Origin: Opitutales bacterium
GTDB lineage: Bacteria; Verrucomicrobiota; Verrucomicrobiia; Opitutales; PNEW01
Length of the DNA stretch: 32,000 nt
NCBI GenBank assembly: GCA_965219535.1
Contig: CBDCNV010000001.1
Location: forward strand, 1,710,001-1,742,000
Reading direction: 5' to 3'
Shown here: positions 9,775 to 32,000 of the stretch, in pieces
Numbering within the stretch: position 1 is the first letter of the stretch
How the letters are laid out: each line of letters opens with the position of its first letter
The notes under the pieces: model-generated
The model's database searches: none
What the model saw: only the letters and a program-made list of their open reading frames with translations
What the model was told of the DNA's origin: nothing
Program-made: the position numbers and the translations under genes

Positions 9775-9826
9775 ATGGGGATACTTTAAACTTCCGCGTT
9801 CAAGAATTACCTGTCAAGAACTGAAA

Positions 9827-10870
9827 ATGCCTAAAAGCCTTATTCTGACCTTTCTTTTAGTTCTCTGTTCCCCATTAGTAGGACAGGGGTTCTGGGAACA
9901 TGAGGAAGAGAGAAGCGCCTATCTTGATTTGGTATGGGAATATCACTTGGATAATTTCAGTCAGAGAAACTATAGCCGCGGTGTTGAAAACCTCTTCCGC
10001 AGCTTTGAAGAAAAAACGAAAAAGATGCTTGTTCCGGGAAAACGGCGTAAAGCAGGGATAAAAATTTATACTAATTCAGGTAGCGGCATTGCCACCCCAA
10101 CTGAATTAGTAATAGCAGTTATTGATAAATTAGTTCAACGTGGGTTTAAGCGAAGTGAACTCTTTATCCTCGATGTCAGTGAGCGTGATTTAAGAAATAG
10201 TGGATTCCTCCCCCCTCTCAGTAAAAAAGCAATAGAAGTGACTTTCGATAGGGTGCCTGTCTACATCTTAGAAACTGAAAACTACTACGATGAACTCTGG
10301 TACCACGAAAGTCCACTGCCATCACAAAGCCAGTTGGCGCATTCCGCAGAATTGATTGGTGGTTACGGTGAAGAAAAAGGCGTCTCAGATCGGAAAAGTT
10401 TCCTCGCCAAGCCATTAATAACGGATGTGGATTTTTGGATAAACCTGCCAATGGCCCTCGACAACCAGATTTTTGGAATAACCGGGGCGTTGACTAATGC
10501 GACACTTTGGGCTATTAGCAACCGGGATAGGTTTTTTGTCAGTCCCGCTAATGGTCCTATTGCGATCGCAGAAATCGCAGCTATTCCTGAATTGAAATCA
10601 GGATGGGTTTTTTCAATTATAAGCTTAGAGCGATATCAATTCATTGGAGGCCCCATTTTTAACTCACTCTATACACGGTCTGAACCCTTGTTATGGATGA
10701 GTATAAATCCCGTTGTTCTCGATGCATTGGTGATGGAACGAATTAATTATCATAAAAAAGAAAATGGATTTACGAGGATCGTTAGAAACACCCAAGTATT
10801 TAACTATGCCCAAAGCTTGGGCTTGGGACATTACAATCGGAAGAAAATCCGCTGGATTCATTTACCTTAA
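9827..10870 (+). CDS. Secreted hypothetical protein, possibly DUF362-like
   Basis: I start at the internal ATG at 9827 (MPKSLILTFLLVLCSPLVGQG, a signal peptide). The track's start at 9728 would overlap the divergent TPR gene. 'AGIKIYTN...ATPTELVIAVIDKLVQRGF..ELFILD' resembles the DUF362 N-terminal pattern, but that assignment is tentative. Confidence 0.55.
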   Translation: MPKSLILTFLLVLCSPLVGQGFWEHEEERSAYLDLVWEYHLDNFSQRNYSRGVENLFRSFEEKTKKMLVPGKRRKAGIKIYTNSGSGIATPTELVIAVIDKLVQRGFKRSELFILDVSERDLRNSGFLPPLSKKAIEVTFDRVPVYILETENYYDELWYHESPLPSQSQLAHSAELIGGYGEEKGVSDRKSFLAKPLITDVDFWINLPMALDNQIFGITGALTNATLWAISNRDRFFVSPANGPIAIAEIAAIPELKSGWVFSIISLERYQFIGGPIFNSLYTRSEPLLWMSINPVVLDALVMERINYHKKENGFTRIVRNTQVFNYAQSLGLGHYNRKKIRWIHLP

Positions 10871-10992: not shown

Positions 10993-12354
10993 ATGCCTCT
11001 CGAAAGATATCTCGCCAAATCACGAATCATTGAAATCCAGAGTGATGACTTGAATGGTGCTTTGGAAGAATTGCTAAAAGTTGCAACCAAGCGTCTTTCT
11101 GCAAGGCTGTCGCCCAATCGTTTGCTCAACGATCTTTTAAATCGTGAAAGTATAATGACGACCTATTTGGGAAATGGAGTGGCGATTCCTCATTTGCGGG
11201 TAAAAATGAAAAGATCCTTTGTCTTTGCGATCGGGCGATGCCGTGAGGGCTTTAAGTATGATGGGGTTCCAAAAGGCACGGAAGTACGCATCTTACTTTT
11301 ACTTCTCGCCTCGGATAAGGTGAAGAATTACCTTAACGTTCTGGCTTCTCTAGCGCGTCTCTTTCGTGAAAAAACTCTGATCGATAATATTTTAGGTGCA
11401 CCCAATTTAGAGATTTTTCAAGAGCGAGTCATTCAAGGGTTCAGTGGGTTACCGGTAAGGCCGGGGAGACGTCAATCCAGGTTTAATAAGCTTTTACTCA
11501 AAGAAGGGGAGAAGGTGGCTAAAGCCTCCCGATGTTCAGCCATTCTTATCTTTAGTGACACCTTCGAAGGCGGTATTGATTTAAGCCCGGATTTCCCGAA
11601 ATACAGAACGGTCATGGTAACACGATCGGCTCCTGAACGACTGTTAGAGCAGAATAATAATACGACGACGATTGAAGTAAAACCTTATTCCAATCATCGT
11701 CTTTCACAATTGAGAAGTGCGGTTTTGATCGGGCTGACACGTGGTGTTTTTAAATATTATGATCGGTTGTGCTGTGTGGCTGGTATATTAAACAGCAATC
11801 AATTTGATACATTGGTTGTGGTCGATGTTGAACGGGAGTTTCAATCGGTACTCACGCGTGAGGCGGATCTTTTACCCTCATCCGTGTCGTTCGAAGTGCT
11901 TGAAAGAATCCTCGCAATTGCCACTGATTTATCGCTCGAAGGGCGTGAAGGAAGATCGATTGGCTGTTTATTTGTCTTAGGAGACACGAAAAAGGTTAAT
12001 ACGATGATAAAACCTTTGGTCTTAAATCCATTTCATGGCTACAAGGAAGAGGATCGCAATGTTTTGAATCCTTTCATGGATGAAACGATCAAAGAGTTAT
12101 CCTTCATGGATGGAGCATTTATCATTAAAGGAAACGGAATTATTGAATCTGCAGGTAGCTTGATAAACACACCCAGTGATTACTATCAAGAAATGCCTAG
12201 CGGTTTCGGTGCGCGCCACGCGGCTGCTTCCGCTATTTCACGGGCAACCGATAGCATTGTAATCGCCGTTTCCGCTACTTCAGGTCGGGTTACCTTATTC
12301 CGTCGCGGTGTAATGCTGCCATTGATTGATAATTCTATGGGAGGAGTACAATAA
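10993..12354 (+). CDS. PTS EIIA(type 2)-domain / PK_C-like / diadenylate cyclase (DAC, DisA_N) domain fusion protein
   Basis: 453 aa. Residues 1-150 carry the EIIA-2 signature 'YLGNGVAIPHLRV' (His67). Residues 298-445 carry DAC motifs: 'GCLFVLGD', 'MDGAFIIKGNG' (DGA) and 'GFGARHAAASAIS...VIAVSATSGRVTLF' (RHR position reads RHA). The middle segment 'AILIFSDTFEGG...TVMVTRS' looks like a pyruvate-kinase C-terminal-like domain. Confidence 0.8.
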   Translation: MPLERYLAKSRIIEIQSDDLNGALEELLKVATKRLSARLSPNRLLNDLLNRESIMTTYLGNGVAIPHLRVKMKRSFVFAIGRCREGFKYDGVPKGTEVRILLLLLASDKVKNYLNVLASLARLFREKTLIDNILGAPNLEIFQERVIQGFSGLPVRPGRRQSRFNKLLLKEGEKVAKASRCSAILIFSDTFEGGIDLSPDFPKYRTVMVTRSAPERLLEQNNNTTTIEVKPYSNHRLSQLRSAVLIGLTRGVFKYYDRLCCVAGILNSNQFDTLVVVDVEREFQSVLTREADLLPSSVSFEVLERILAIATDLSLEGREGRSIGCLFVLGDTKKVNTMIKPLVLNPFHGYKEEDRNVLNPFMDETIKELSFMDGAFIIKGNGIIESAGSLINTPSDYYQEMPSGFGARHAAASAISRATDSIVIAVSATSGRVTLFRRGVMLPLIDNSMGGVQ

Positions 12355-12426
12355 AGGATCGTGTTAACGATTTTCATTGCTTTTGATCACAGACTATTGA
12401 TAGCTTATCCCTTAAATCTTTAGCAA

Positions 12427-12594
12427 ATGCCGAGAGAAAATGTCATATTAGAGTGCACTGAAGCTGCCAAGGAAGGAAAATCGCCCTCCCGCTATATGTC
12501 GACGCGCAATAAAAAATTGCAACAGGGACGATTGGAAAAGAAGAAGTATAATCCTTTTTTAAGGCGTCATACGCTTCACCGGGAAGTCAAATAG
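12427..12594 (+). CDS. rpmG: 50S ribosomal protein L33 (Cys-poor 'C-minus' form)
   Basis: Not in the ORF track (55 aa). ATG 12427 to TAG 12592-12594 translates as [55 protein letters not shown]. The L33 hallmarks 'Y.T.KNKK', 'LE.KKY.P..R.HT.H.E.K' are present. Confidence 0.85.
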
Positions 12595-15442: not shown

Positions 15443-15987
15443 TGGGGAAAACATATACTTTCAGCGATTTCCTCCGCTTTTTCTCTCCCCCTAAGCTTTG
15501 CGACGAGAGCGAGTGAAAATTCTGTCGCGGTACCAGCTCCTTTTGAGGTAATTATCTCACCATCGACAACGACCGCTTGATTGGAAACTGGATCCTGGAG
15601 GTCATCGATGACACTGGGATGTGATGTGTATTGCTTCCCATTAAGTATTCCCGCATCGCTCAAAACAGTCGGCGCCGCGCAAATGGCACCTGTTATACCC
15701 CCTTTTGCTGCGTGCTGCTTTATTAGAGCAATAACCCGCGCGTCTTTTCGCATGCGTTTATAACCGGGGCCCCCTGGCACGATAATAGTATCGAAGTCTT
15801 TATCGATAACTGATTCGAGTAGTGCGTCCGCTTTTACTTTTATGCCATCACGTCCCGTGACAAGCAGTGTATCTTCGGTAGAAGCAATAGTGCAGTTGAC
15901 GTCGGCCCTACGCAATAAATCTATTGGACAGATCGCTTCTATCTCTTCAAAACCTTCAACCAATAAAATTAACGCAGTTTTACTCAT
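15424..15987 (-). CDS. DJ-1/PfpI-family protein
   Basis: 187 aa. 'FDTIIVPGGPG' and the nucleophile-elbow 'GAICAAPTVL' (conserved Cys) are typical of DJ-1/ThiJ/PfpI. Confidence 0.9.
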   Translation of the reverse strand: MSKTALILLVEGFEEIEAICPIDLLRRADVNCTIASTEDTLLVTGRDGIKVKADALLESVIDKDFDTIIVPGGPGYKRMRKDARVIALIKQHAAKGGITGAICAAPTVLSDAGILNGKQYTSHPSVIDDLQDPVSNQAVVVDGEIITSKGAGTATEFSLALVAKLRGREKAEEIAESICFPHQRVET

Positions 15988-15999
15988 GCATAATTAGGG

Positions 16000-16848
16000 T
16001 CACATCATTTTTGGATTACGTTCATATTTTTCGATATCAATTCGAAACTTTTCCAATGTATCCCAATAAGTTTTTCCGGCAAAAATGATTAAATCATTAT
16101 GACCCGCACCTTCGACCCAGAGATAGAGTTTTGGTTTGTTCGCTTTTTCCATTAAAGCTTTTCCGTGCCAGAAAGAAACAACTTCATCTTCTGTTCCGTG
16201 AATAAATAAGATCGGACACTGCACAGAATTTATTTTGCTGATGTTACTGAATTTATCCCAGGGGAGGAGAGGGTATTTAGTCATTACCCGAAAGGCACTG
16301 ACAAATGTACTCTCTAATATTAGCCCTCCCAAAGGTTTTCGTGAGGCCAGGTCAACGGCGGGTCCACCGCCTACCGATCTACCGAGAGCAATTATCTTTT
16401 CCGGCTTGATTTTAAGTTTATCTACGAGGTATTCATAAGCCGCATTGATTGATGCATAGGCTCCTTTTTCTGTCGCGCGGCCGTCACTTGTGCCATAGCC
16501 TGGATAGTCATAGGCAAAGACGGAAAAACCAAATTTTTGAAAACCCTCGAATGTGGGATAAAGCTCACCGATGTCTTCATAATTGCCGTGGCTATAAAGC
16601 AAAGTGTATTGGGAACGCTTATGAGGAAGATAGATTCCAGAAATCGTTTTTCCATTATCAATCGGAATTTTTATTATACGTTGGTTGTCCGTATAGCTGG
16701 ATGGCTTGTTAGGGAAAATCATCCCGTCAGAAAAGAGCAATGCTATAACTGCTAATATTCCATAGGCAAACAGGAGCGTAATGGCTATAATTTGAAGCGT
16801 ATCCATAATCATCTCACTAATCTTTTTATTGTATTTTTGCATGCTCAT
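16000..16848 (-). CDS. Alpha/beta-fold hydrolase with an N-terminal membrane anchor
   Basis: 282 aa. It has an N-terminal TM helix, an oxyanion 'LYSHGN', the GxSxG elbow 'GRSVGGG', then 'FIHGTEDEVV' and 'GAGHND'. It lies 12 bp upstream of the DJ-1 gene, so the two probably form an operon. Confidence 0.85.
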   Translation of the reverse strand: MSMQKYNKKISEMIMDTLQIIAITLLFAYGILAVIALLFSDGMIFPNKPSSYTDNQRIIKIPIDNGKTISGIYLPHKRSQYTLLYSHGNYEDIGELYPTFEGFQKFGFSVFAYDYPGYGTSDGRATEKGAYASINAAYEYLVDKLKIKPEKIIALGRSVGGGPAVDLASRKPLGGLILESTFVSAFRVMTKYPLLPWDKFSNISKINSVQCPILFIHGTEDEVVSFWHGKALMEKANKPKLYLWVEGAGHNDLIIFAGKTYWDTLEKFRIDIEKYERNPKMM

Positions 16849-16910
16849 TAAAAGTTAGATGAATCTATTTAGGCTTAAAATATTTAGCAATAGTTTTTCA
16901 GTATCGGATA

Positions 16911-18245
16911 ATGGTTGCCATCAATGCCTGGATTAAAAAAATGAGAAGCATGAGAAGTCTGGAAAGGGGAAAGCTCGCCTATTCTCGGATGGGTAATCAG
17001 ATAACAGATCCTGTCATTACTCAGCTGATGATTGAAGCGCTAAGTAAACCTGATCTTTTATCACTAGCGGCTGGATTTACTGATAACCACGTGCTTCCCG
17101 TAAATCTGGTAAATAATGTGGTTAGTAATCTTTCTGGAAACACCGAGAACACTGAGTACTTGCAATATGGATTCAACCAGGGCCGGTTACTGCTGAGAGA
17201 ACTAACCTGTCAGTTTCTCGCTGCTTATCCGAGTGAGGCGGGTAAGAAGTTTAATCCTGAGCAGATGTTAATTACTAATGGGTCGCAACAAGCACTCTAC
17301 CTTGCCGTGCAGGTGTTGTGTGATCCTGGTGATATTATTTTAGTCGAGCGGCCCACTTATTTTGTATTTCTTGAAATGTTGAAAAGTTTAGGGGTCGAAG
17401 CGATCTCTATTCCCACTGAAGATGATGGAGGGATTGATTTCGAGCAGTTTGCGGCAATGATTGAGGCTTTATCTGTTTCAAGCAAGAGAGAGAGACTGAA
17501 AGGAATCTACCTCGTTAGTTATTTTTCAAATCCATCGTCACGCTGCATGCCGGAAGAAGATAAAAGCCGCCTTGGAAGATTATTGCAGAGTTTGGACTTT
17601 AGCTTACCTGTAATTGAAGACACCGCCTATCGTGAGCTGTATTACGATGTTCCTTACCCGTCTCGAAGTATTCTCAGTCTGCCAGAATACGAAGGCATTC
17701 CCTGTCTCTATACCGGAACTTATACCAAACCTTTTGCCACCGGGTTGAAAGTTGGATTTGCCTATAGTTCTGATTATGAGTGGTTGAAGAAGATGGAGCG
17801 CGTGAAAGGCTGTCAGGATTTTGGCACATCAAATTTTACCCAGGCAATTATCGAATCGGTCTTAAGTAACAATCATTACCCTGAAGTCCTGAATGGTCTT
17901 CGCAAACACTATAAACGCAAGATGAAGCTGCTGCAGGATTCTTTGGACGATTATGGTTTGCGCGATCTTGGATGGGATTGGGAAATTCCTGAAGGGGGGC
18001 TGCTCTGTTGGATTAAAGGTCCTGTCGATTTAAATACAAATATCGATTCATCCTTTTGTAAATCCTGCGTGGATCATGGAGTACTCTATGTGCCGGGCAG
18101 TATTTGCTTTGCCGACGATGAGCCCACTTATTATGTAAGACTGAGTATAGGCTCTCTCGATGATGAACACTTGCAAGAAGCAGTGAAACGATTCGTTGAG
18201 GTAGTGAAAGATATTAGCAGCCTAACCTCTGATCAGGGGAGGTAA
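16911..18245 (+). CDS. PLP-dependent aminotransferase, class I/II (2-aminoadipate/MocR-like catalytic domain, no HTH)
   Basis: 444-aa ORF; the true start may be a downstream Met. Hallmarks are 'ITNGSQQALYL', 'GDIILVERPTY', 'NPSS', 'IEDTAYRELYY' and 'TYTKPFATGLKVGF' (the PLP lysine). Confidence 0.85.
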   Translation: MVAINAWIKKMRSMRSLERGKLAYSRMGNQITDPVITQLMIEALSKPDLLSLAAGFTDNHVLPVNLVNNVVSNLSGNTENTEYLQYGFNQGRLLLRELTCQFLAAYPSEAGKKFNPEQMLITNGSQQALYLAVQVLCDPGDIILVERPTYFVFLEMLKSLGVEAISIPTEDDGGIDFEQFAAMIEALSVSSKRERLKGIYLVSYFSNPSSRCMPEEDKSRLGRLLQSLDFSLPVIEDTAYRELYYDVPYPSRSILSLPEYEGIPCLYTGTYTKPFATGLKVGFAYSSDYEWLKKMERVKGCQDFGTSNFTQAIIESVLSNNHYPEVLNGLRKHYKRKMKLLQDSLDDYGLRDLGWDWEIPEGGLLCWIKGPVDLNTNIDSSFCKSCVDHGVLYVPGSICFADDEPTYYVRLSIGSLDDEHLQEAVKRFVEVVKDISSLTSDQGR

Positions 18246-22286: not shown

Positions 22287-22733
22287 ATGTCAAAACGGCT
22301 AAAAGATATCTACATTATCGAAGATGATGAAATGCTTCGAGATACTATTGCTAACCAGTTAGAGGATTTCTTTCCTGATCTAGATATAGTCGGTGCTAGA
22401 GGAACGAGCCATAAAGCGTTGATTGAATGCTGGGAGCTCGAACCTGATCTCGCTATTTTGGATATCGGCTTACCGGACATCTATGGATTAGAAATATTAC
22501 ACTTTTTTAAAGCAAAATTTCCAAAAAATTTAGATTTTAATCTATTCAGGATTAGCTGATGAGCATACCGCAGATATTGCAAAACTGAGTGAAGCCGACG
22601 GATTTGTGACGAAGAAATCCGGGATGAGTGAAATAAGAAAAGCAATAACGACAATATAGATGGTGGGTACTATATCAGCCCCGAGCTAGAGAATCTGGGC
22701 ATGCCGCAAAAAGACTTAGCTATCCTAAATTAA
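22287..22733 (+). pseudogene. NarL/LuxR-type response regulator remnant: receiver domain broken by two frameshifts, with the HTH output domain missing
   Basis: Frame 1 (22287-22559) reads 'IYIIEDDEMLRD...LAILDIGLPDIYGLEIL..FKAKFPKN' and then stops at a TGA. The receiver homology continues in the +1 frame from 22534 ('ILIYSGLADEHTADIAKLSEADGFVTKKSGMSEIRKAITTI' followed by TAG). It then returns to frame 1 from 22659 ('DGGYYISPELENLGMPQKDLAILN' followed by a stop at 22731-22733). The conserved Ser and Lys sit in the shifted segment. Confidence 0.6.
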
Positions 22734-22735
22734 TT

Positions 22736-23194
22736 TTATTCCTCTATTACGAGTGCATAGCGGTCCCAATTTATTCTACGAAAACGCCCCGTAGCCAAAT
22801 CTCCGTCGTCCATCTGTTCATCAATCATTTGCATTTGTTGAGCTGTTGCATTGGATAATCGAATACTTATCGCAGCAGTAACCCCCCATTGGTTATAATC
22901 CCAGATCCATTGTCCGCCAACAGGTGAATTCAACCACGCGTTGCCTAAGTAGGGTTCCATATTTGTCGGTATGGGGTTGAATGCTCCATCAGGCGGGTAC
23001 GCCCCGTTTTCAATGGAATAGCGTTTGAATCCTTCAGCGAATGTAGAGTAGTCATGCATGAGACGAGAATTTTCCGAGGCAAGTTGAACTCTCCTGAATG
23101 CGGGTATAGCCATCGAGGCCAATATCCCAATAATCACCACAATAATCATAATCTCGACGAGAGTGATTCCAGAATTATCGTGTCTTTTCCTCAT
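22736..23194 (-). CDS. Prepilin-type N-terminal cleavage/methylation domain protein (type II secretion pseudopilin / type IV pilin-like)
   Basis: 152 aa. 'GITLVEIMIIVVIIGILASMAIPAF' is the class III signal (G|xTLxE plus a hydrophobic helix). The following 'A....L..D......F..Y..ENGAYP' resembles GspG. Confidence 0.9.
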   Translation of the reverse strand: MRKRHDNSGITLVEIMIIVVIIGILASMAIPAFRRVQLASENSRLMHDYSTFAEGFKRYSIENGAYPPDGAFNPIPTNMEPYLGNAWLNSPVGGQWIWDYNQWGVTAAISIRLSNATAQQMQMIDEQMDDGDLATGRFRRINWDRYALVIEE

Positions 23195-23623
23195 TATAAA
23201 TGACGTTAAATATTATTAAAAATGGTGCTTATACCTATATTATAATAGATGGTAAGCTTAGTCTATAATAGGTATATTGCCCTATTAAATTACTAATTAC
23301 AACTCCATTTTACATTTTTTTATATATTCATTAACCCTTTTTATAAAAAGAGATAGGTTATTAATTGTCGTTAATATTGGAAATTATAACCAGTAAAATG
23401 AGCTGCATTTAAGAGTGAAAAGGAAGATTCCGGACTTATCAGCCTATAAATGGGGAAATTCAGGAACAGAAATAGCCACCCTGGGAGTAATAATTCTCTC
23501 TATAATGATTAGTGAGGGGAGTGACTTAAGTGTCCTGAAAAGAGGCGCTTAAAAAGAGCGAGTATAAGTCGATATTTTAAAAAACTGATAAGCAGTTTCA
23601 TCCGAAACTGTTTCACTACTTTT

Positions 23624-23812
23624 ATGTCAAATATTACATTAGGTGATGTAAAAATCACGAGCGAAGAGGGGCATCTAATTTTTGAGGATCGGCGCTTTGA
23701 AAATCAGTATGGTATATTCTTTCCCGATTGTATGCGACAGGGAATATTGGATCCTCCTGAGCAACTCTCTTACATCGTAGGTGAACTGGAAAGAGAGTGG
23801 TTAAGCGATTAG
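23624..23812 (+). CDS. Small hypothetical ORF (62 aa)
   Basis: It is the only ORF in an otherwise non-coding stretch. There is no recognisable motif and the coding status is uncertain. Confidence 0.25.
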   Translation: MSNITLGDVKITSEEGHLIFEDRRFENQYGIFFPDCMRQGILDPPEQLSYIVGELEREWLSD

Positions 23813-23964
23813 TTGGATCGCCAGGAATCCAGTTAAAGAGAATAAGCATTCATGCGATGCACTTTATCCGGTAGCAAACAGGGATGTTCGGGTCCTAACA
23901 GATTTAATCTATTGACGAAATGGCTATTTGTATCGCCGTGTGACACCTTCAAGTAGAGCAGAAA

Positions 23965-24871
23965 TTATGCTTTCCAGTAATCTGCATGCACATAACGGTA
24001 AGTCTCAGGGCCATCGGCTGGCATATCGTCAAACTGATCAAAAGGCGCGGGTGGAGCATAGACAAAAGACATTTCATCCTGATGTATGTAGTCCGCTTGA
24101 TTCCGCTCTTCAATGCAAGCCCGCAGCACATTCTGCTTGAGAGGAATATAGTCTGGGGTATGCGGGCCGTTTTTAACTTCCAGGTGCGCGGTTCTGAATT
24201 CATAGTAAACGACACGCCGTAATTTTTGCGAGCTACTGTCAGGTGAGCCATGTAAAAGTCGAATTTCATGAAAAAGCACATCACCGGGTTGCATGTATAA
24301 GGGGACGGCTTCAGATAATTTAAAATTCAGACTTTTGAAATAAGGTTTCGCACGTTCCTCGCTCCAGCGATGACTGCCGGGGATACCCCAGACACAGGTA
24401 TCATGATCCGCTTCATCCAGATAAAAATCCACATTGAACACCGGGTTTTCATCGGCGCATTGAACGGCGGCGTCACGATGCCAGGGGACTTCAATACCTT
24501 CGCGTGGCATCTTGATCACAATAGCGTCCCAGGTTGGAATCATGTCGGAGCCCATTGAGTTTCTCCACCGACCGTAAGATTGTCGGGTGACCTAAAAGAA
24601 CACGAAATACCGCGCCCTTATCCACCACATAATCGATCCTTCTTAAGATGCTCTTTCCTGTACGTTTTCCTTCCTTGTACAAATAATCCTGAAGAGTTTG
24701 TTGCGGGTTTTCACCTGCAGTGATCAGCTTGTGGGATGCCTCCTGGAGACGTTTCAGTTCAGCTGATACCAAAACGTTCTTAAGTATCAGATAGCCGTTC
24801 TCGTGAAAGAACTGAACCTGCTCATTGGTGATAACGGTCCCTGGTTGAGGGCAGTTTGACGCAATGGACAT
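23965..24871 (-). pseudogene. Phytanoyl-CoA dioxygenase (PhyH)-family Fe(II)/2OG oxygenase, split by a 1-nt frameshift near 24555
   Basis: ORF 24491..24892 carries the PhyH N-terminus ('TNEQVQFFHENGYLILKNVL...HPTILRSVEKL'). ORF 23965..24555 carries the core ('MGSDMIPTWDAIVIKMP...VPWHRDAA' as HxD, 'WGIPGSHRW', 'GDVLFHEIRLLHGSPDSSSQKLRR' as distal His and Arg). The two overlap by 65 nt in different frames, and joined they give about 300 aa, a normal PhyH length. The likely start is Met8 (24871). Confidence 0.75.
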
Positions 24872-24966
24872 GCCTGAATCTGCCATCCACAAATGTTTTG
24901 AAATTCACGCTGATTAGTCGAATCAAAAAAGTAGACCCAACAACCTGTGAAAATAAAAACCCTATG

Positions 24967-26013
24967 CTAAGCCAACCCGCCTTTGACCGCGATTTTGATA
25001 GCATCTTTACCGTCGAGATTGTAGCTACTATGTAAGGCATCAAACCCATCTGAGACTTGCTCTAAGGGAATGATGTGGCTGACAAATCCTTCAAAGAAAG
25101 AGGCGTACTTATCCAGCATAGGCAATGTGCGAAGGAAGTGCTCATTTTCAAACCCCCAGGCTGCTTCGAGACGAAGATTCTTGCGCATAAGCATCTGGTT
25201 GGGATTGCATTCGAATGTACCCACGTCCACGAAGTGTCCAAACTCTACATAGGTGCCGCCATACCGAATATATTCCAAACCTTCGGGGATAGCGCTGAGG
25301 AAACCGCAGCATTCGAAGACGACGTCAGCACCTTTGCCCTGAGGGGTATTATCGCGGACAATTTTTATTCTCTCCTCAGGGTTTGGAACTTCCGCGATGT
25401 CAATCGTGATATCCGCGCCCATCTTTTCAGCCATTTCCATTCTCCCTGCAGGGCCACCAACAACAATGAGTCGCGCCGCGCCTGAGAATTTGGCCCAAAT
25501 GAGTGCGAGCAATCCGATTGGACCTGAACCTTGAATTACAACGGTGTCCCCTAATTGGATTTTCCCTCGTGAAACACAATGGGCTGCACAAGCAGCAGGT
25601 TCTGTGAGGACCGCGATCTCAGGGGTGAGCTCGGTCTTTAGGAACATGGTTTCCGGGTACGAAAGATAGATGTATTCGCTGAAGCCGCCTCGCAAGTAAG
25701 GTGGTTCTTCTGAGGGGGAGAAACCATAACCAGACTTGGGTGAAAGGGCGACACGGTCGCCCACTTTGATCGGCTTACCCACATAGTCAGTTTCGACACC
25801 GGAACCCAGGGTATCAATGATCCCGACATTTTCATGACCGAGTATAAGATCGAAATCCATACGCTGGTATTCCCAGTTGTGAAGATCGGTGCCGCAGATA
25901 CCGCAAAGCTCCTGTCTTAATAGCACTGTCCCCGGAGCGGTCTTGGGTATTGGATACTCGCGCAGTTCAAAATTTTTACCTACCATGACGGATGCGCGTG
26001 CGGTCTTAGCCAT
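24967..26013 (-). CDS. Zinc-dependent alcohol dehydrogenase (MDR superfamily)
   Basis: 348 aa. 'CGICGTDLH' and 'GHENVGII' are catalytic zinc ligands. 'VVIQGSGPIGLLA' is the Rossmann motif. The usual four-Cys structural zinc loop after 'GDRVA' appears to be absent. Confidence 0.92.
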   Translation of the reverse strand: MAKTARASVMVGKNFELREYPIPKTAPGTVLLRQELCGICGTDLHNWEYQRMDFDLILGHENVGIIDTLGSGVETDYVGKPIKVGDRVALSPKSGYGFSPSEEPPYLRGGFSEYIYLSYPETMFLKTELTPEIAVLTEPAACAAHCVSRGKIQLGDTVVIQGSGPIGLLALIWAKFSGAARLIVVGGPAGRMEMAEKMGADITIDIAEVPNPEERIKIVRDNTPQGKGADVVFECCGFLSAIPEGLEYIRYGGTYVEFGHFVDVGTFECNPNQMLMRKNLRLEAAWGFENEHFLRTLPMLDKYASFFEGFVSHIIPLEQVSDGFDALHSSYNLDGKDAIKIAVKGGLA

Positions 26014-26093
26014 ATGATTAGTTAATTAATGCGGATAGTAGAGTCAAATTTTTCCAATACTTAGATACTGTTGTTACAATTAAGACACGAGAA

Positions 26094-27602
26094 TTAAGAG
26101 ATTAATTCGTAGTCCGCCAATTTGACAGTTGAAGTCGCATCGCCATAGGCCCGGATAGGGTTCGACCAGTTTTGCGTTATGCGCCCAGCACTGTTTTTAT
26201 ACCAGGAGGTGCAATTTGGATCGGACCATACCCGCATTGCGAGTTCTTTCTGGAGCTGGTCATTGAAACGGATTTGAGCTTCATGAGTAGGGACCATTGC
26301 TTTTACCCCCTGTTCATCAAGAGCGAGAAGTGCTTTCACAGCATAGTTGACCTGGTGTTGCAGCATTCTTGTGATCGTGCCATGGCCGAGATTCGTGTTC
26401 GGTCCATAGAGCATAAAGAGATTTGGAAAACCGGCGACTGTGATGCCAAGATAAGCCTCCGGTCCTTTTGTCCAGAGTTCGTGCAGGTTCTGACTGTGGC
26501 GGCCAATGACATCCATCGACCAGTGCCAGCCGGTTGTTTCAAAACCGGTAGCGAATATCAACACATCGAAATCGTGAATAGCCCCATCACAGGTTTCAAT
26601 GCCCTGTTTGTTGATCCGGGAGATCCCGTCGGTGACCAGTGAAACATTGTTTCGCATCAATGCCGGATAGTAGGCGTCGGTTGGGAGAACGCGTTTGCAG
26701 CCGATGGGGTAGTCTGGCCTGAGTTTTTTACGCAATTCAGGATCGGATACCTGGGCTTCCATATGATTGAGAGCAATGCGTGTAAAAGCGGCACGACCGA
26801 CCTCGTTCCATTCAAATGCCTGCCAAAAGAAATACTCACTTCGGTCGAAGATCATTTGCCGGTTGTGCTGCCCAAGGCTTGCCGCGCGGTCGGGATTAGT
26901 CATCATGAGCGCTTTTTCCTCGTCTGTGACTTCCCGGTCGACTTTAGGGATAATCCAATTGGGCGAACGCTGGAAGACGGTGAGTTCGGCGGTTTCCTTC
27001 GCGACTTCGGGGACGAGTTGTACCGCGCTCGCTGCCGAGCCAATCACACCAACGCGTTTTCCCTTGAGGCTGACAGTGTCATCCCAACGGGCTGAGTGCA
27101 TGGAGGGACCGGCAAAGCTATCAAGGCCTTCGATCTCCGGCAGGGCAGGGCGGTTCAACTGGCCGAGTGCGGTGATAATCGCATCTGTTTCAATTTTTCT
27201 GCCCGACTCGGTTGTGACGAGCCACAAACAAAGTGATTCATCCCAGGTTACATTTGCCACCCCTTCAGACAGACACAGATGACTCGCAAGCTGGAAGTCT
27301 CCAGCGATAGCCTCCGCATACGCCTGGATTTGCGCGGCGCGGGGGTAGAGGTGACTCCAATTAGGATTGGGCGCGAAAGAAAATTCATATTCCGCGACCT
27401 GTGTATCGCAGCAGCAGCCGGGATATTTATTTTCGTACCAGACCCCGCCAACTTTCGGATGGCGATCGAAAATTAGAAAATCTTCTATACCTGCTTCCTT
27501 GAGTTTAACACCAGCACACAGACCACCAAGTCCTGCGCCAATCACCGCTACTCGGGTTTTATCAGGCATTTGTTTATTCTCCAGAATCGCTTTAATTGGC
27601 AA
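26094..27602 (-). CDS. Type I Baeyer-Villiger monooxygenase (FAD/NADPH-dependent)
   Basis: 502 aa. 'VAVIGAGLGGL' binds FAD. 'GGVWYENKYPGCCCD' matches [A/G]GxWxxxx[F/Y]P[G/M]xxxD. 'FAGPSMHSARWD' matches the BVMO fingerprint FxGxxxHxxxW[P/D]. 'GKRVGVIGSAASAVQ' binds NADPH. The start may be Met12 (27569); the 27602 start overlaps the upstream gene's stop by 11 nt. Confidence 0.92.
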   Translation of the reverse strand: MPIKAILENKQMPDKTRVAVIGAGLGGLCAGVKLKEAGIEDFLIFDRHPKVGGVWYENKYPGCCCDTQVAEYEFSFAPNPNWSHLYPRAAQIQAYAEAIAGDFQLASHLCLSEGVANVTWDESLCLWLVTTESGRKIETDAIITALGQLNRPALPEIEGLDSFAGPSMHSARWDDTVSLKGKRVGVIGSAASAVQLVPEVAKETAELTVFQRSPNWIIPKVDREVTDEEKALMMTNPDRAASLGQHNRQMIFDRSEYFFWQAFEWNEVGRAAFTRIALNHMEAQVSDPELRKKLRPDYPIGCKRVLPTDAYYPALMRNNVSLVTDGISRINKQGIETCDGAIHDFDVLIFATGFETTGWHWSMDVIGRHSQNLHELWTKGPEAYLGITVAGFPNLFMLYGPNTNLGHGTITRMLQHQVNYAVKALLALDEQGVKAMVPTHEAQIRFNDQLQKELAMRVWSDPNCTSWYKNSAGRITQNWSNPIRAYGDATSTVKLADYELIS

Positions 27603-29205
27603 TTAATACAATCCTCCCTATTCTAATACTCTCATCCCAACGTCTTGACAGTAAATATTCCATCGCGCTCTCCATTGCTAAAGGCGTTCCAATTCGCCGC
27701 AATGCAGCCAAGTCAAATGCGGCAACATAGCCATTGGGATCGGCCAATTTATCGATCAAGATTTCCTCTGCTGACGCGGCATCTTTCCCTAAACGCGCAA
27801 AAGCCAACGCTGCATTGACCCGGACTTGATCGTACGGTGACCAATCACGTCGAATAATAGTTTGCCATTCAGGTCTACCCATCTTGAGTAAGCGCCCAAG
27901 CGAAGGTAAAAATTCCTCGCTGTGTTGTTTTATCGTACCCAAGGCTTCCGTTGCCGTTCTCACCACGCAATGAGACGGATCATCCAGACAATGTGTCAAA
28001 ACAGGCACAGCTTTAGCTGCAGTTGAATCCATCTCACCCAGGGCGAAGGCTGCATTGATGCGCACCCACTCACTCGAATCATCTAATAGCCCAATCAGAG
28101 AATCCAATGACGGCTCACCATTTGAAGCTAGGGCAAAAGCAGCATCGTTCATCAATATAGAGTTTTCATTCCAAATTTCATTAGTGGGATCACCCGCTTC
28201 ACCCTTAGCCGAATCTTTAAGCGCGGTTACCAGAGGATCCACCGCGGGTTGACCCAGCGCACCCAGGGTGTAGATAGCTGTCAATCGCTCCCATTGCAAA
28301 TCGCAATTCAAGCGTTCGATCAATGTTGGTATCGCAGGCAAATCAACTGAAGTGGCAATCGAATGCATGGCCGAAATGCGGGTATCCAAATCGACGGCAT
28401 TCAGGGCATCCAGCGCCCCTTTCATAGAGTCAGCATTTGAAGCGTGAAAACTTTCATACCGATCCTTTTTTCCACACAGCCAATCCCAAATATGCGACCA
28501 CATCAGGTTTAAGTTATGAGAAGTTTCAAATTGCTCTGGATTTATCCAGGCTCGATCCTGGCAATCCCAAGAGGGTTCACTCGGTTCTTCAGCCCGCGCG
28601 TAAATAAATTTAATCATAGCACGAGGTTTATTAATCTTATTGATACCCGCGCCATGCCCGATATCAAAATGGCTAATCGACACCGTCCCCGCTTCTCCTG
28701 CAATTGGGACAGCTTTTTGTCGGTCTTCCTCGGGCAACACCTTGTGGCCGTATGAACCAGGGATTAAATGCGTAGGGCCAATCTCAACCGGTGAATCCTG
28801 TGGATAGTACATAATGCGTGCAAAGCGAGGGTAGTGTTGTCGCTGCCGTGCTAAGGGAGTATATCCATCCTGGTGACATTTTTGCGCTACCGGGACTGGT
28901 TCTCTGCCGGGGGGTATAAAATGAGAATGACGATTGGGGTGTTCAATATATCCCGGCCCGAGAACACTGATCAAAGCACCTCTCACTTCAGGGCTGTTCA
29001 ATACACGATCCATTTCTGGAACGCGAGGCAGCACATTATTGCCACAATTGAACTCTTCCTCCTCCATAAATTTAAGTTTCTCATGTACCACCTTGTGCAC
29101 CTCACCTGGCACATCAGGTTTAAAGATAACGTACCCATCCGCAACAAACTGTCGCATTTGCTTATCGTTAAAAAGTATTGGGTCTTCTTTCTTCCCATAT
29201 GCCAT
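27592..29205 (-). CDS. PhyH-like Fe(II)/2OG dioxygenase domain fused to a C-terminal HEAT-repeat domain (paralogue 1)
   Basis: 537 aa. The N-terminal half has 'FNDKQMRQFVADGYVIF', 'CHQDG' (HxD, His111/Asp113), 'GPTHLIPGS' and 'VSISHFDIGHGAGINKINKPR'. The C-terminal half has PBS-lyase-type HEAT-like repeats: 'EWVRINAAFALGEMDSTAAKAVPVLTHCLDDPSHCVVRTATEALGTI' and 'DQVRVNAALAFARLGKDA...LADPNGYVAAFDLAALRRIGTP'. Confidence 0.8.
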   Translation of the reverse strand: MAYGKKEDPILFNDKQMRQFVADGYVIFKPDVPGEVHKVVHEKLKFMEEEEFNCGNNVLPRVPEMDRVLNSPEVRGALISVLGPGYIEHPNRHSHFIPPGREPVPVAQKCHQDGYTPLARQRQHYPRFARIMYYPQDSPVEIGPTHLIPGSYGHKVLPEEDRQKAVPIAGEAGTVSISHFDIGHGAGINKINKPRAMIKFIYARAEEPSEPSWDCQDRAWINPEQFETSHNLNLMWSHIWDWLCGKKDRYESFHASNADSMKGALDALNAVDLDTRISAMHSIATSVDLPAIPTLIERLNCDLQWERLTAIYTLGALGQPAVDPLVTALKDSAKGEAGDPTNEIWNENSILMNDAAFALASNGEPSLDSLIGLLDDSSEWVRINAAFALGEMDSTAAKAVPVLTHCLDDPSHCVVRTATEALGTIKQHSEEFLPSLGRLLKMGRPEWQTIIRRDWSPYDQVRVNAALAFARLGKDAASAEEILIDKLADPNGYVAAFDLAALRRIGTPLAMESAMEYLLSRRWDESIRIGRIVLIAN

Positions 29206-29216
29206 GGCAAATTGAT

Positions 29217-30848
29217 TTAAAAGGTTCGATCTTTCATAAGACTGTCATCGTACCTTCTTGTCATCAAATATTCCAACACGCCCTCTATAGCCTTAGGGGT
29301 ACCAATGCGTCGCAAAGCTTCTGATGCAAAGGCGGACACATGGCCATTGGGATCGGCTAATTTGTCGAGCAATAATTCCTCTGAGGATGTCGCATCATTT
29401 CCTAACCGCGTCAATGCCATGGCCGCATTGATCCTGACTTGGTCATAAGGTGTCCAGTAGTTGGAACGAACAGGAGTTTTCCATTCAGGCCGACCGTCTT
29501 TGAGCAATCGTCCAAGCGAGGGCATAAATTCTTCGCTCTTTTGATGTATAATACTCAATGCGTCGGTTGCTGTTCTCACCACGCAATGAGAGGCATCATC
29601 CAAACAGCGGGTCAAAGCAGGCACGGCTTTAGCCGCCTCAGAATCCATCTCACCAAGAGCAAAAGCGGCATTGATGCGTACCCACTCACTCGAATGATCC
29701 AACAGACTAATCAGAGAATTCAATGAAGGTACTCCAATGGCAGCCAGTGCATGAGAAGCATCGTTCATCGAAATAGAACATTGCAGATCCGAGGAATCAC
29801 GCGAAAAATCTAAGATATTAGTCGAAAGGTCTTCATCTTTATCATTGGCTGAATCCTTAAGCACCGTTACCAGAGGATCCACGGCCGGCTGACCAAGCGC
29901 GCCCAGGGTGTAGAGAGCCATTAATCGTTCCCATTGTGGGTCGGAATTTAACCGATTAATGAGTGATGGGATCGCCCCCATATTTTTCAATGCAGCAATC
30001 GAATGCATGGCCGAAATTCGCGTATCCAGATCGGCGTCATTCAGGGCATCTAGCGTCTCATCGGTTGAATCAGCTTTGGTTGCGCGAAAACTTTCGTACC
30101 TATCCTTCTTTCCGCACAGCCAATCCCAAATATGCGACCACACCAGGTTTAAGTTGTGAGGGGCTTCATAGTTTGCCGGATTCCTCCACATTCTATCCTG
30201 GCAATTCCACGAGGGTTCCTTCGGTTCTTCGGCCCGCAGGTAGACAAATTTTATCATGTGCCTAGGTTGATTAAGCTTATTAATGCCCGCAGCGTGTCCG
30301 ACATCAAAATGCGTAATCGATACCATGCCTGCTTTTCCCGCGATTGGTATGGCTTTTTTGGGATCATCGGCGGTCAACCATTTTTGATACTGTGTACCCG
30401 GAATTGCATGGGTGGGTCCGATTTCAATGGGTGAATCCTGCGGATAGTACATAATGCGCGCAAATCGAGGATAATGATGTCGGGGCCGTCCTAAGGGGGA
30501 ATATCCATCCTGGTGAAACCCTTCATTCATGGATGTCTTCTGTTTTGTTTCAGGGCCGATATAATGACAATAACGGTGCGGGTGTTCAATATACCCCGGC
30601 CCGAGTACGCTGATTAATGCCCCTCTCACTTCCGGGCTGTTTAAAATACGATCCATCTCTGGGACACGAGGCAGCACGTTGTTGCCATAATTATATTCTT
30701 CATCCACCATATATTGAAGCTTCTCTCTGACTGTCTTGTGCACCTCCTCTGGTACGTCGGGTTGAAAGACGACGTACCCGTCAGCAACAAACTGACGCAT
30801 TTGTTCATCATTAAATAGCGTTGGCTCTACTTGCTTACCGTATATCAT
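29217..30848 (-). CDS. PhyH-like Fe(II)/2OG dioxygenase domain fused to a C-terminal HEAT-repeat domain (paralogue 2)
   Basis: 543 aa, colinear with paralogue 1 along its whole length and sharing the same motifs ('FHQDG', 'GPTHAIPGT', 'VSITHFDVGHAAG', 'WSHIWDWLCGKKDRYESF', HEAT repeats). It lies 11 bp upstream of paralogue 1. Confidence 0.8.
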   Translation of the reverse strand: MIYGKQVEPTLFNDEQMRQFVADGYVVFQPDVPEEVHKTVREKLQYMVDEEYNYGNNVLPRVPEMDRILNSPEVRGALISVLGPGYIEHPHRYCHYIGPETKQKTSMNEGFHQDGYSPLGRPRHHYPRFARIMYYPQDSPIEIGPTHAIPGTQYQKWLTADDPKKAIPIAGKAGMVSITHFDVGHAAGINKLNQPRHMIKFVYLRAEEPKEPSWNCQDRMWRNPANYEAPHNLNLVWSHIWDWLCGKKDRYESFRATKADSTDETLDALNDADLDTRISAMHSIAALKNMGAIPSLINRLNSDPQWERLMALYTLGALGQPAVDPLVTVLKDSANDKDEDLSTNILDFSRDSSDLQCSISMNDASHALAAIGVPSLNSLISLLDHSSEWVRINAAFALGEMDSEAAKAVPALTRCLDDASHCVVRTATDALSIIHQKSEEFMPSLGRLLKDGRPEWKTPVRSNYWTPYDQVRINAAMALTRLGNDATSSEELLLDKLADPNGHVSAFASEALRRIGTPKAIEGVLEYLMTRRYDDSLMKDRTF

Positions 30849-30888
30849 AGCAAAAAGTTCCTGAACTGCGTTTTATTATCAATCTGAA

Positions 30889-32000
30889 TTAAAATGTTCG
30901 ATCTTTTATAAGACTGTCATCCCACCGCCTTGTCATCAAATATTCCAACACGCCCTCAATGGCCAAAGGGGTACCAATGCGTCGCAAGGCTTCCGCTGCA
31001 AAGGCGGACACATGGCCATTGGGATCAGCTAATTTATCGAGCAGTAATTCCTCTGCGGATGTCGCATCTTTTCCCAAACGTATGAATGCCATGGCCGCAT
31101 TGACTCGAACCTGATCGTAAGCGGTCCAGTTCCGTCTTAGAGGTTTAAGCCATTCAGGCCGACCCTCTTTTAGTAACCGTCCAAGTGAGGGCATAAATGA
31201 TTCACTGTTTTTCTGTATAGTACTCAAAGCATCCGTTGCCGTTCTCACTACACTATGAGACGCATCATCCAAACAGCGCGTCAAAGTGGGAACGGCTTTA
31301 GCTGCATCAGAATCCATCTCACCCAAGGCAAATGCGGCATTAATGCGTACCCATTCATTCGAATTGTCCAACAGACCAATCAGAGAGTCCAATGATGCTA
31401 CACCCATGGACGCCAGTGCATGAGTAGCATCATCCATCGAAATAGCCCCTTCATTCCAAAATATGGTCATAGGATCATCATCTTTGTCGTTGGTCGAATC
31501 CTTAAGCGCGGCCAACAGAGGCTCGATGGCGGGTTGACCGAGCGCACCCAGAGTGTAGACAGCCGTCAATCGTTCCCATTGTGGATCGGAATTCAAGCGT
31601 TCGATGAGTGTGGGTATCGCATTTAAATCACCTGATGTGGCAATCGAATGCATCGCCGAAATACGGGTACCCAGATCGTCAGCACTCATGGCATCCAACG
31701 CCTCATTCATCGATTCATCTTTTGATGAACGAAAACTTTCATACGGATCCTTTTTTCCACATAACCAATCCCAAATATGTGACCACACCAGACTCAAGTT
31801 ATGAGGTGTTTCAAAAGTCTCAGGATCTCTCCACCTTTGATCCTGGCAATCCCACGACGGTCCGCTCGGTTCTTCGGATCGAGCGTAGATAAATTTTATC
31901 ATATGCCGAGATTTATTAACCTCATTGGCACCGGCGGCGTGTCCAATATCAAAATGAGTAATCGACACCGTGCCCGTTTTTCCTTCTAGTGTGATGCCAT
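30889..32000 (-). CDS. PhyH-like dioxygenase / HEAT-repeat fusion (paralogue 3), partial; the N-terminus lies beyond the right window edge
   Basis: The track starts it at GTG 31968, but the frame stays open to position 32000 ('..GITLEGKTGTVSITHFDIGHAAG'). That stretch aligns with 'IPIAGKAGMVSITHFDVGHAAG' of paralogue 2. The remainder is colinear with paralogues 1 and 2. It lies 40 bp upstream of paralogue 2. Confidence 0.8.
   Translation of the reverse strand, partial: GITLEGKTGTVSITHFDIGHAAGANEVNKSRHMIKFIYARSEEPSGPSWDCQDQRWRDPETFETPHNLSLVWSHIWDWLCGKKDPYESFRSSKDESMNEALDAMSADDLGTRISAMHSIATSGDLNAIPTLIERLNSDPQWERLTAVYTLGALGQPAIEPLLAALKDSTNDKDDDPMTIFWNEGAISMDDATHALASMGVASLDSLIGLLDNSNEWVRINAAFALGEMDSDAAKAVPTLTRCLDDASHSVVRTATDALSTIQKNSESFMPSLGRLLKEGRPEWLKPLRRNWTAYDQVRVNAAMAFIRLGKDATSAEELLLDKLADPNGHVSAFAAEALRRIGTPLAIEGVLEYLMTRRWDDSLIKDRTF

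Follow-up and report, generated by a model that had tools for sequence, protein, structure and literature searches.

A tandem array of genes joining a PhyH domain to HEAT repeats

The DNA analysed here is a stretch of 32,000 nucleotides from an Opitutales bacterium (contig CBDCNV010000001.1, positions 1,710,001 to 1,742,000 of the forward strand), referred to below as the window. Its last part is occupied by minus-strand genes for two-domain proteins, in which an N-terminal PhyH-type domain, of the Fe(II)/2-oxoglutarate (2OG) oxygenase kind, is followed by a C-terminal solenoid of HEAT-like repeats. The original prediction, made from the letters of the window, described three head-to-tail paralogues of this design, and their open reading frames (ORFs), strand, lengths and spacers of 11 and 40 nt are as it claimed. 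The array has the following features within the window:

27592 to 29205, minus strand: paralogue 1, PhyH-HEAT fusion, ORF of 537 aa
28591 to 29205, minus strand: paralogue 1, jelly-roll, aa 1-205
28426 to 28590, minus strand: paralogue 1, Trp-rich connector, aa 206-260
27595 to 28425, minus strand: paralogue 1, HEAT solenoid, aa 261-537
28867 to 28875, minus strand: paralogue 1, codons His111-Gln112-Asp113, the predicted HxD of the Fe(II) facial triad
28621 to 28656, minus strand: paralogue 1, codons from His184 (predicted distal Fe ligand) to Arg195 (predicted binder of the 2OG C5-carboxylate)
29217 to 30848, minus strand: paralogue 2, same architecture, ORF of 543 aa; predicted triad His112/Asp114/His185 with Arg196
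30889 to 32000, minus strand: paralogue 3, its C-terminal 369 residues, then running off the window end

The remainder of paralogue 3 was recovered from contig L001 (ENA ERZ25067264, 137.5 kb), which is 100% identical to window positions 22644-32000 in reverse orientation and prolongs the window; the complete protein has 533 aa (L001 11756-13357). The same contig carries a fourth tandem copy, also of 533 aa, 153 nt upstream of paralogue 3, and the count of three copies is corrected to four. Pairwise identity is 70-74% among the three window copies and 70-76% among all four, and paralogue 2 is distinguished by 8 extra residues inserted in a variable HEAT loop. The sequence motifs listed in the original prediction were all found, with variants in the upstream copies (YHQDS/CHQDS in copies 3 and 4, GPTRVIPG in copy 3). 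A scan of the array for terminators and promoters gave no signal over shuffled expectation, and is uninformative on operon structure.

A PhyH jelly-roll is predicted to dock rigidly on an acidic solenoid

Profile searches against Pfam upheld both domain assignments, with PhyH and HEAT_2/HEAT_PBS above their cutoffs in each paralogue. PhyH (PF05721, gathering threshold 22 bits) scored 29.1, 22.8, 34.2 and 34.7 bits in paralogues 1 to 4, the second of these being marginal. HEAT_2 (PF13646, threshold 27.7 bits) reached 89-102 bits across the four copies (88.9, 100.7 and 89.4 in paralogues 1, 2 and 3, respectively), and HEAT_PBS (PF03130, threshold 20.9 bits) reached 44-50 bits.

An AlphaFold2 (AF2) model of copy 1, built from a 51-sequence family alignment, had a predicted local distance difference test score (pLDDT) of 88.6 and a predicted template modelling score (pTM) of 0.91; only the termini and residues 337-346 were unreliable, and the connector at aa 204-232 was placed with a pLDDT of 94-98. 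Because a pTM this high in a two-domain protein implies a fixed arrangement of its parts, the model predicts that jelly-roll and solenoid are rigidly docked. It contains 14 helices at aa 264-520, and the C-terminal half is accordingly modelled as about seven HEAT-like hairpins stacked into an alpha-solenoid, which is acidic in every copy (isoelectric point (pI) 4.6-5.1, net charge -8 to -16). A Foldseek search of the Protein Data Bank (PDB) with the model matched its N-terminal half to SptF, FtmOx1, TlxI/J, KanJ, SnoN, AndA and ThoJ (E 1.6e-7 to 4e-6; probability 1.0, TM 0.5-0.6 relative to the target). A profile of the same half found ThoJ as its best PDB match (E 4.3e-5) and PHYHD1 as its second (2.7e-4), followed by SptF and FtmOx1. 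The C-terminal half matched the alphaRep proteins by sequence (E 4e-22) and by fold (5e-8), in keeping with the HEAT/PBS-lyase-type repeats originally proposed for it.

Several features are the family's own. Its N-terminal half carries an invariant NxGNNxLP motif, the connector has five invariant tryptophans (W213, W220, W236, W240, W242), and the helix-B faces of three central repeats are near-invariant (W380, N384, E391, R416, D459, Q460, R462, N464). The N-terminus reads directly as lacking a hydrophobic leader, and the proteins are therefore probably cytoplasmic. The solved PhyH enzymes (ThoJ 6zyk/6zyl, PHYHD1 2opw, SptF 7eyw, FtmOx1 4y5s, KanJ 6s0s, SnoN/SnoK and TlxI/J) share with these proteins the jelly-roll, the HxD...H pattern and the arginine. 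They are, however, only 15-20% identical to the N-terminal half and are chains of 236-319 aa without a solenoid, to which the PhyH-HEAT proteins add the Trp-rich connector, a HEAT solenoid of about 275 aa and NxGNNxLP. The solenoid in turn has the 31-residue 'VR..AA.ALG' repeat and alpha-solenoid fold common to alphaRep and HEAT_PBS proteins (PF13646, PF03130; CpcE/CpcF, NblB), but differs from CpcE, CpcF and NblB in being fused to an oxygenase and in occurring in non-photosynthetic hosts with no phycobilisome context.

The original prediction also drew an analogy with deoxyhypusine hydroxylase (DOHH), likewise a hydroxylase containing HEAT repeats, to which we found a weak match in sequence over one repeat (E 0.016). 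DOHH is a HEAT-repeat di-iron enzyme whose metal site is formed by His-Glu motifs inside the repeats. The HEAT half of the family consensus from the 51-sequence alignment lacks both an invariant His and an HE motif, and in the PhyH-HEAT proteins catalysis is assigned to a separate jelly-roll. The DOHH analogy thus failed on the His-Glu motifs, and the parallel one with bilin lyases failed on equivalog cutoffs and context (see below).

The predicted active site is intact

Four residues of the N-terminal half (H111, D113, H184 and R195 in paralogue 1) are invariant in 51 family sequences of at least 47% identity, and also in 28 N-terminal-half sequences that extend down to 33% identity. Alignment with the solved enzymes sets His111-x-Asp113 on their HxD (WHQDA/IHQDH motifs) and His184 on the distal His of ThoJ, SptF and PHYHD1. 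Arg195 falls on the 2OG-binding Arg of ThoJ, PHYHD1 and SptF, about 11 residues past the distal His. Judged by this alignment, the metal triad is predicted to be His111/Asp113/His184, with Arg195 for 2OG. Of the facial triad first suggested, His111 and Asp113 therefore stand; for the distal ligand, which had been left between two histidines, the alignment selects His184 and not His179. The structure prediction supplied the expected jelly-roll, and it was the sequence alignment with solved enzymes that placed the triad within it.

Together, the Pfam scores, the fold matches and residues in register identify the N-terminal half as a PhyH-type Fe(II)/2OG domain with a putatively intact site. We considered a 2OG-dependent halogenase of the SyrB2 type, in which the triad carboxylate is replaced by Ala or Gly (HxA/G), and rejected it, as Asp113 is invariant in the 51 and the 28 sequences alike. 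Retention of this Asp points to hydroxylase-type chemistry rather than halogenation.

PhyH-HEAT proteins form a large, unnamed family

A word-indexed search found at least 372 clusters (at 90% identity) of full-length relatives, and those listed are nearly all 500-600 aa long. HEAT domains are recorded throughout the listed relatives and PhyH for about half; their only names are 'HEAT repeat protein' and 'hypothetical protein'. An exhaustive phmmer search with the N-terminal half returned 1187 representatives of 50%-identity clusters (637 at E<=1e-10, 151 at E<=1e-30), and most of the top matches were proteins of 450-550 aa with the domain at the N-terminus. C-terminal HEAT repeats were present in 8 of 10 sampled matches, including members only 37-43% identical over the N-terminal half. 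Stand-alone short relatives of the N-terminal half (249-285 aa) were considered as exceptions; one of the two short matches sampled runs visibly into a HEAT repeat, so that at least one of them is a fragment. Fusion is the rule in this clade.

Among species representatives of the Genome Taxonomy Database (GTDB), 333 stretches encoding the family were confirmed. The hosts of the best 80 of the 333 were Opitutales, 'Ca. Moanabacter', Latescibacterota, Poribacteria and Gemmatimonadota. Distant subfamilies of 496-502 aa are also poribacterial, with 'phytanoyl-CoA dioxygenase' or 'HEAT repeat domain-containing protein' as their names. No NCBIfam model describes the PhyH-HEAT fusion, and the only NCBIfam matches were far-sub-threshold ones to the repeats of CpcE, CpcF and NblB; searches of the literature for PhyH/phytanoyl-CoA dioxygenase or 2-oxoglutarate dioxygenase together with HEAT found no description of it. 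The claim that the fusion has no characterised member therefore survives: every solved PhyH-type match is a chain without a solenoid, and we found neither a curated family nor a paper. The PhyH-HEAT proteins are a large, unnamed and uncharacterised family, a variation on a known enzyme type and not a categorically new one. For the study of 2OG oxygenases they offer a large, conserved architecture with an intact predicted active site.

Sponge microbiomes typically contain the phyla in which the family is widespread, and each of its domains has been counted there before. PhyH is the most abundant Pfam family in Poribacteria, at more than 1.9% of genes and with function unknown (Kamke et al. 2014, PMC3909097). 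HEAT is among the eukaryote-like repeats enriched in metagenome-assembled genomes (MAGs) from sponges and thought to mediate host interaction, and lateral transfer of sponge-enriched genes has been noted (Robbins et al. 2021, PMC8163846). Sponge-associated Opitutales were described by Sizikov 2020, as cited in PMC12648040. The Opitutales bacterium of the window is marine, and the naming of contigs and MAGs suggests that its DNA may derive from a sponge metagenome. The two surveys concern the same phyla and Pfam domains as the present family, but counted PhyH and HEAT separately and described no fusion (PMC3909097, PMC8163846); here both belong to one enzyme family, members of which are annotated either 'phytanoyl-CoA dioxygenase [Candidatus Poribacteria]' or 'HEAT repeat protein'. 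At least part of the poribacterial phyH signal and of the sponge-symbiont HEAT signal is thus one probably cytoplasmic enzyme type, which alters how such domain counts are read.

One poribacterial locus (L024) carries two tandem HEAT-only proteins (15507-17674; about 350 aa, 71% identical) and a stand-alone PhyH (11651-12490) within 6 kb of a family gene. These are not close relatives of the fusion's halves. The idea that they represent the fusion in split form (a 'Rosetta stone' arrangement) was rejected on both sides: none of the HEAT-only proteins is hit by a hidden Markov model (HMM) built from the HEAT half of the family, and the stand-alone poribacterial PhyH proteins score only 25-31 bits against the N-half HMM, so that they are not split versions of the fusion.

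The copies are old and all maintained

Tandem arrays occur in one Opitutales lineage only, with four copies in L001, L002, L003 and L081 and three in L004 and L082, where copy 1 is absent. Two unclassified MAGs have two convergent copies, and all other loci have one copy within +/-10 kb. The four paralogue groups come out as monophyletic in a neighbour-joining tree (bootstrap 100/100), each with orthologues in 3-4 genomes. Sister to them, again at 100/100, stands a Latescibacterota clade with 67-68% identity, whereas the other Opitutales and Moanabacter copies (about 50% identity) branch elsewhere. Since the nearest relatives of the array are thus in another phylum, the tree suggests that a transfer between phyla, in either direction, probably preceded the tandem amplification.

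Between orthologues, dN/dS ranges from 0.14 to 0.25 in copies 1, 3 and 4 and from 0.25 to 0.41 in copy 2, the most relaxed of the four; dS between paralogues is 0.7-1.0. These values indicate that the duplications are old and that all copies have been kept by purifying selection; selection on each copy in turn argues that the genes are functional. We observed separately that copy 1 looks the most dispensable. It is absent in L004 and L082, its C-terminus (window 27592-27640) ends in ...IRIGRIVLIAN where the family consensus has ...KDRTF, and its orthologue in L081 is interrupted by an IS1595 element/transposase; the stretches of relatives concerned are L002 11665-13263 and L081 13364-16283.

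The original prediction placed the most divergent segment of the paralogues in the HEAT half and proposed that recognition, rather than chemistry, had diversified there. The segment is real (paralogue 1 aa ~333-352), and corresponds to the loop that AF2 cannot place (pLDDT <50 at 337-346), but the catalytic half contains stretches that diverge just as much. Conservation is lowest at aa 91-114 and 151-174 (loops of the jelly-roll that flank the HxD), 252-272 (linker), 331-354, 445-458 and the C-terminus. Identity between copies is 70-77% in the jelly-roll and 68-76% in the HEAT half, and scoring with orthologues gives 17 fixed differences specific to a paralogue in aa 1-205 (8.3 per 100 aa) against 22 in the HEAT half (7.9 per 100 aa). 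Conservation of the chemistry is therefore borne out, but divergence is equal in both halves.

The array lies among genes for predicted oxidative enzymes

The genes around the array are co-directional with it. They run in the order secreted 631-aa protein, copies 4, 3, 2 and 1, Baeyer-Villiger-type flavin monooxygenase (BVMO), Zn-dependent alcohol dehydrogenase (Zn-ADH) and stand-alone PhyH, with spacers of 49, 153, 40, 11, 22 and 80 nt from the 631-aa gene to the Zn-ADH and about 80 nt more to the stand-alone PhyH. The flanking genes are:

L001 8056-9951, just past the window end: secreted 631-aa protein (P0270), directly upstream of the array
26094 to 27569, minus strand: BVMO, type I, 491 aa, 22 nt downstream of paralogue 1
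24967 to 26013, minus strand: Zn-dependent medium-chain alcohol/polyol dehydrogenase, 348 aa, 80 nt downstream of the BVMO, with Pfam ADH_N and ADH_zinc_N
23965 to 24886, minus strand: stand-alone PhyH, 306 aa in relatives, with Pfam PhyH at 69.6 bits on a 196-aa part

The monooxygenase matches Pfam FMO-like (51 bits) and Pyr_redox_3 (65 bits), has GAGLGG at aa 11 and carries the BVMO fingerprint FxGxxxHxxxW[P/D] as FAGPSMHSARWD at aa 152. Its best NCBIfam match is PtlE, itself a BVMO, at 211 bits against a cutoff of 1100. The mechanical ORF (26094-27602) begins at a TTG that overlaps the stop of paralogue 1, whereas the public gene call begins at the ATG at 27569; the ATG is probably the start, giving a 22-nt spacer instead of an overlap. 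The Zn-ADH has sub-cutoff NCBIfam matches to threonine, scyllo-inosose and idonate dehydrogenases. A tblastn search with the orthologue from L003 showed that the stand-alone PhyH is split by one frameshift near 24551-24555: residues 1-112 are encoded in one frame and residues 111-306 in another, at 90-93% identity to that orthologue. With a coverage of about 6x, to judge by the contig name, the frameshift may be an indel of the assembly or mark a real pseudogene.

The secreted 631-aa protein carries a signal peptide and matches no model of Pfam or NCBIfam. Its own family comprises at least 6652 clusters at 90% identity, with top-listed members mostly of about 500 aa, and the few members named by organism belong to Planctomycetota, Verrucomicrobiota, Armatimonadota and Calditrichaeota. 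A structural model (pLDDT 78) resembles the beta-propeller plus beta-sandwich enzymes of glycoside hydrolase (GH) families GH32, GH130 and GH43 (probability 1.0, low TM), and the protein may represent an unclassified glycoside-hydrolase-like family. In L002, L003 and L081 a paralogue of it lies between copy 1 and the monooxygenase; the window genome is without the 530-aa GH43-related gene that its relatives carry between copy 1 and the BVMO. A Latescibacterota gene of equal length and position was considered as a homologue and rejected; it is unrelated and encodes an NAD synthase.

Upstream of the array in L001 are four further stand-alone PhyH genes, a 398-aa protein of unknown type, an aldo-keto reductase and ThuA. 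Six related islands combine the array with a GH32/43/130-like secreted protein, the BVMO, the Zn-ADH and stand-alone PhyH genes; the BVMO follows the array in 6 of 6, the Zn-ADH after it is conserved, and the aldo-keto reductase and ThuA lie upstream wherever the contig extends that far. The 398-aa ORF (L001 5072-6268), which has no Pfam or NCBIfam match, is kept in the PhyH island of all Opitutales relatives.

Genes assigned to sugar-acid catabolism recur beside the family in other phyla

In Latescibacterota clade A the neighbours are galactokinase-like, UxuA-like, BNR_4, a TonB receptor, GFO/IDH/MocA, a fuconolactonase-like amidohydrolase and a short-chain dehydrogenase/reductase (SDR). Locus L083 has, in one direction, a sulfatase, a permease, the family gene, a GFO gene and alginate-lyase-like and heparinase-II/III-like genes, with gaps of 37-39 nt around the family gene. 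The poribacterial neighbours are PhyH, SDR, galactonate-dehydratase-like, HpcH aldolase and UxuA-like genes. An association with carbohydrate or sugar-acid catabolism thus recurs in four or five independent settings, although it is not universal.

A catabolic hydroxylase with an accessory solenoid is the favoured function

The PhyH-HEAT proteins are very probably active 2OG oxygenases whose solenoid is a functional accessory module. On the further reading that they are cytoplasmic two-domain Fe(II)/2OG hydroxylases of oxidative catabolism our judgement is evenly poised, and it is a plausible, slightly more tentative suggestion that their substrates are small molecules or oligomers derived from glycans or a host. 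The PhyH jelly-roll (about 205 aa) would decarboxylate 2OG, form a ferryl species and hydroxylate a C-H bond of the substrate, in the course of oxidative catabolism of imported organic compounds from glycans or host. In the Opitutales lineage this hydroxylation could open a cascade in which the Zn-ADH would produce a ketone and the BVMO would cleave a ring or chain by Baeyer-Villiger oxidation to an ester or lactone; such a cascade fits the co-directional order and short spacers of the 631-aa gene, the four PhyH-HEAT copies, the BVMO, the Zn-ADH and the PhyH gene. The four copies would serve related substrates, and the divergence between them does include the two loops flanking the HxD. The solenoid would either widen the substrate-binding surface or mediate docking or oligomerisation. 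The four-copy array beside a BVMO and an ADH offers a concrete, tractable operon, and its substrate may be a marine or host-derived compound of an as yet undescribed degradation pathway.

Several observations weigh against a role in catabolism. No neighbour is conserved across all lineages examined, and the BVMO/ADH pair accompanies the family in the Opitutales lineage only. In a large Latescibacterota clade B the family gene sits directly behind NAD-biosynthesis genes, and in Gemmatimonadota an enolase-superfamily gene and an SDR are accompanied by a divergent DeaD helicase. As loci are syntenic within a phylum, only about five or six contexts are independent. The catabolic association could moreover be partly background, because the host phyla are rich in carbohydrate-active genes (PMC8163846). 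The acidity of the solenoid makes it a poor fit for binding an anionic glycan. Finally, the eukaryotic precedents for joining a solenoid to a 2OG oxygenase, AspH and collagen prolyl 4-hydroxylase (P4H), are protein hydroxylases.

By analogy with these last enzymes, the HEAT solenoid could dock a protein or peptide, possibly a basic one, and present a side chain to the PhyH site. In AspH (tetratricopeptide repeats (TPR) plus oxygenase) and collagen P4H (a TPR-like peptide-binding domain) a helical repeat domain helps to hold a polymeric substrate, and the design of helical repeats plus 2OG oxygenase is shared. The resemblance stops there: both belong to another oxygenase subfamily of the eukaryotic endoplasmic reticulum, their repeats are TPR and not HEAT, AspH has the opposite domain order, and we detected no sequence relationship. 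HEAT and alphaRep solenoids are generic protein binders, and the C-terminal half is close to alphaRep in sequence; an acidic solenoid could bind basic proteins, and the near-invariant helix-B faces suggest a conserved binding surface. ThoJ, the best PDB match to the N-terminal profile, is a peptide-modifying hydroxylase, but the match is a weak one, and enzymes acting on small molecules match at least as well. Housekeeping neighbours are found in some lineages (NAD synthase, DeaD). No gene for a precursor of a ribosomally synthesized and post-translationally modified peptide, a ribosomal protein or a translation factor recurs beside the family in the examined loci, however, and a housekeeping protein modifier would not typically be amplified to 3-4 copies, have several divergent subfamilies in one genome or be embedded in catabolic islands. 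We regard a protein or peptide substrate as somewhat unlikely.

A more specific form of the catabolic hydroxylase is less probable still. In it, the PhyH-HEAT proteins would be a 2OG oxygenase class of their own, and the solenoid might itself form part of the substrate site for an oligomeric or bulky glycan ligand of host or algal origin, in a family spread laterally among symbiont phyla. Modified sugars could then undergo oxidative O-demethylation, desulfation or hydroxylation, and, if this is true, both the unexplained phyH expansion and the HEAT enrichment in sponge symbionts would be due in part to the family.

Conversely, the solenoid could have no part in recognition and serve only as an oligomerisation or scaffold module, perhaps assembling hetero-oligomers of the paralogues, with a small-molecule substrate bound wholly by the jelly-roll. 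Heterodimers of PhyH-type paralogues exist, as in TlxI/J (7vbq), which is among the top structural matches; the modelled pTM and the high confidence with which the connector is placed speak for a rigid body and against a flexible arm for recognition, and divergence between copies is not enriched in the HEAT half. Hetero-oligomers cannot be the general function, as most lineages have a single copy, and the fact that over 1000 divergent clusters have kept the solenoid, its surface residues strongly conserved, argues for something beyond a passive scaffold. We consider this quite unlikely.

An oxygenase directed at nucleic acid, for example an RNA 2'-O-methyl or base demethylase, is very improbable. 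HEAT-like domains do bind tRNA or DNA in QueG and AlkD, from which the analogy with an RNA- or DNA-binding solenoid is taken. PHYHD1, the second-best PDB match to the N-terminal profile, and FJS are PhyH-family enzymes that demethylate 2'-O-methyl nucleosides, but neither acts on RNA (PMC12709175). In Gemmatimonadota the DeaD RNA helicase is adjacent to the family gene, but it is divergently transcribed and found in this one phylum only, and the strong acidity of the solenoid in all four copies argues against nucleic acid as a ligand. Least credible of all is an enzyme that modifies or degrades a linear tetrapyrrole held by the PBS-lyase-type repeats: beyond the HEAT_PBS scores and a CpcE structure match (E 0.047), the NCBIfam equivalogs of bilin lyases and NblB (CpcE, CpcF, CpeY, NblB) reach 18-37 bits against cutoffs of 220-600 (19-37 against 220-330 for CpcE, CpcF and NblB), as generic repeat units only, the hosts are heterotrophic Opitutales, Latescibacterota and Poribacteria, and neither the window nor the other neighbourhoods examined contain a gene for a phycobiliprotein, a haem oxygenase or a bilin reductase. 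Both of these readings are made unlikely by the acidic solenoid and by the failed tests of membership.

Other genes of the window

Two plus-strand ORFs elsewhere in the window, at 9728-10870 (380 aa) and 3666-4214 (182 aa), have no Pfam match. A third, at 10993-12354 on the plus strand, encodes 453 aa with phosphotransferase system (PTS) EIIA-2, DacZ_P sensor and DAC diadenylate-cyclase domains. It looks like a c-di-AMP synthase, possibly under the control of a PTS-type phosphorylation domain.

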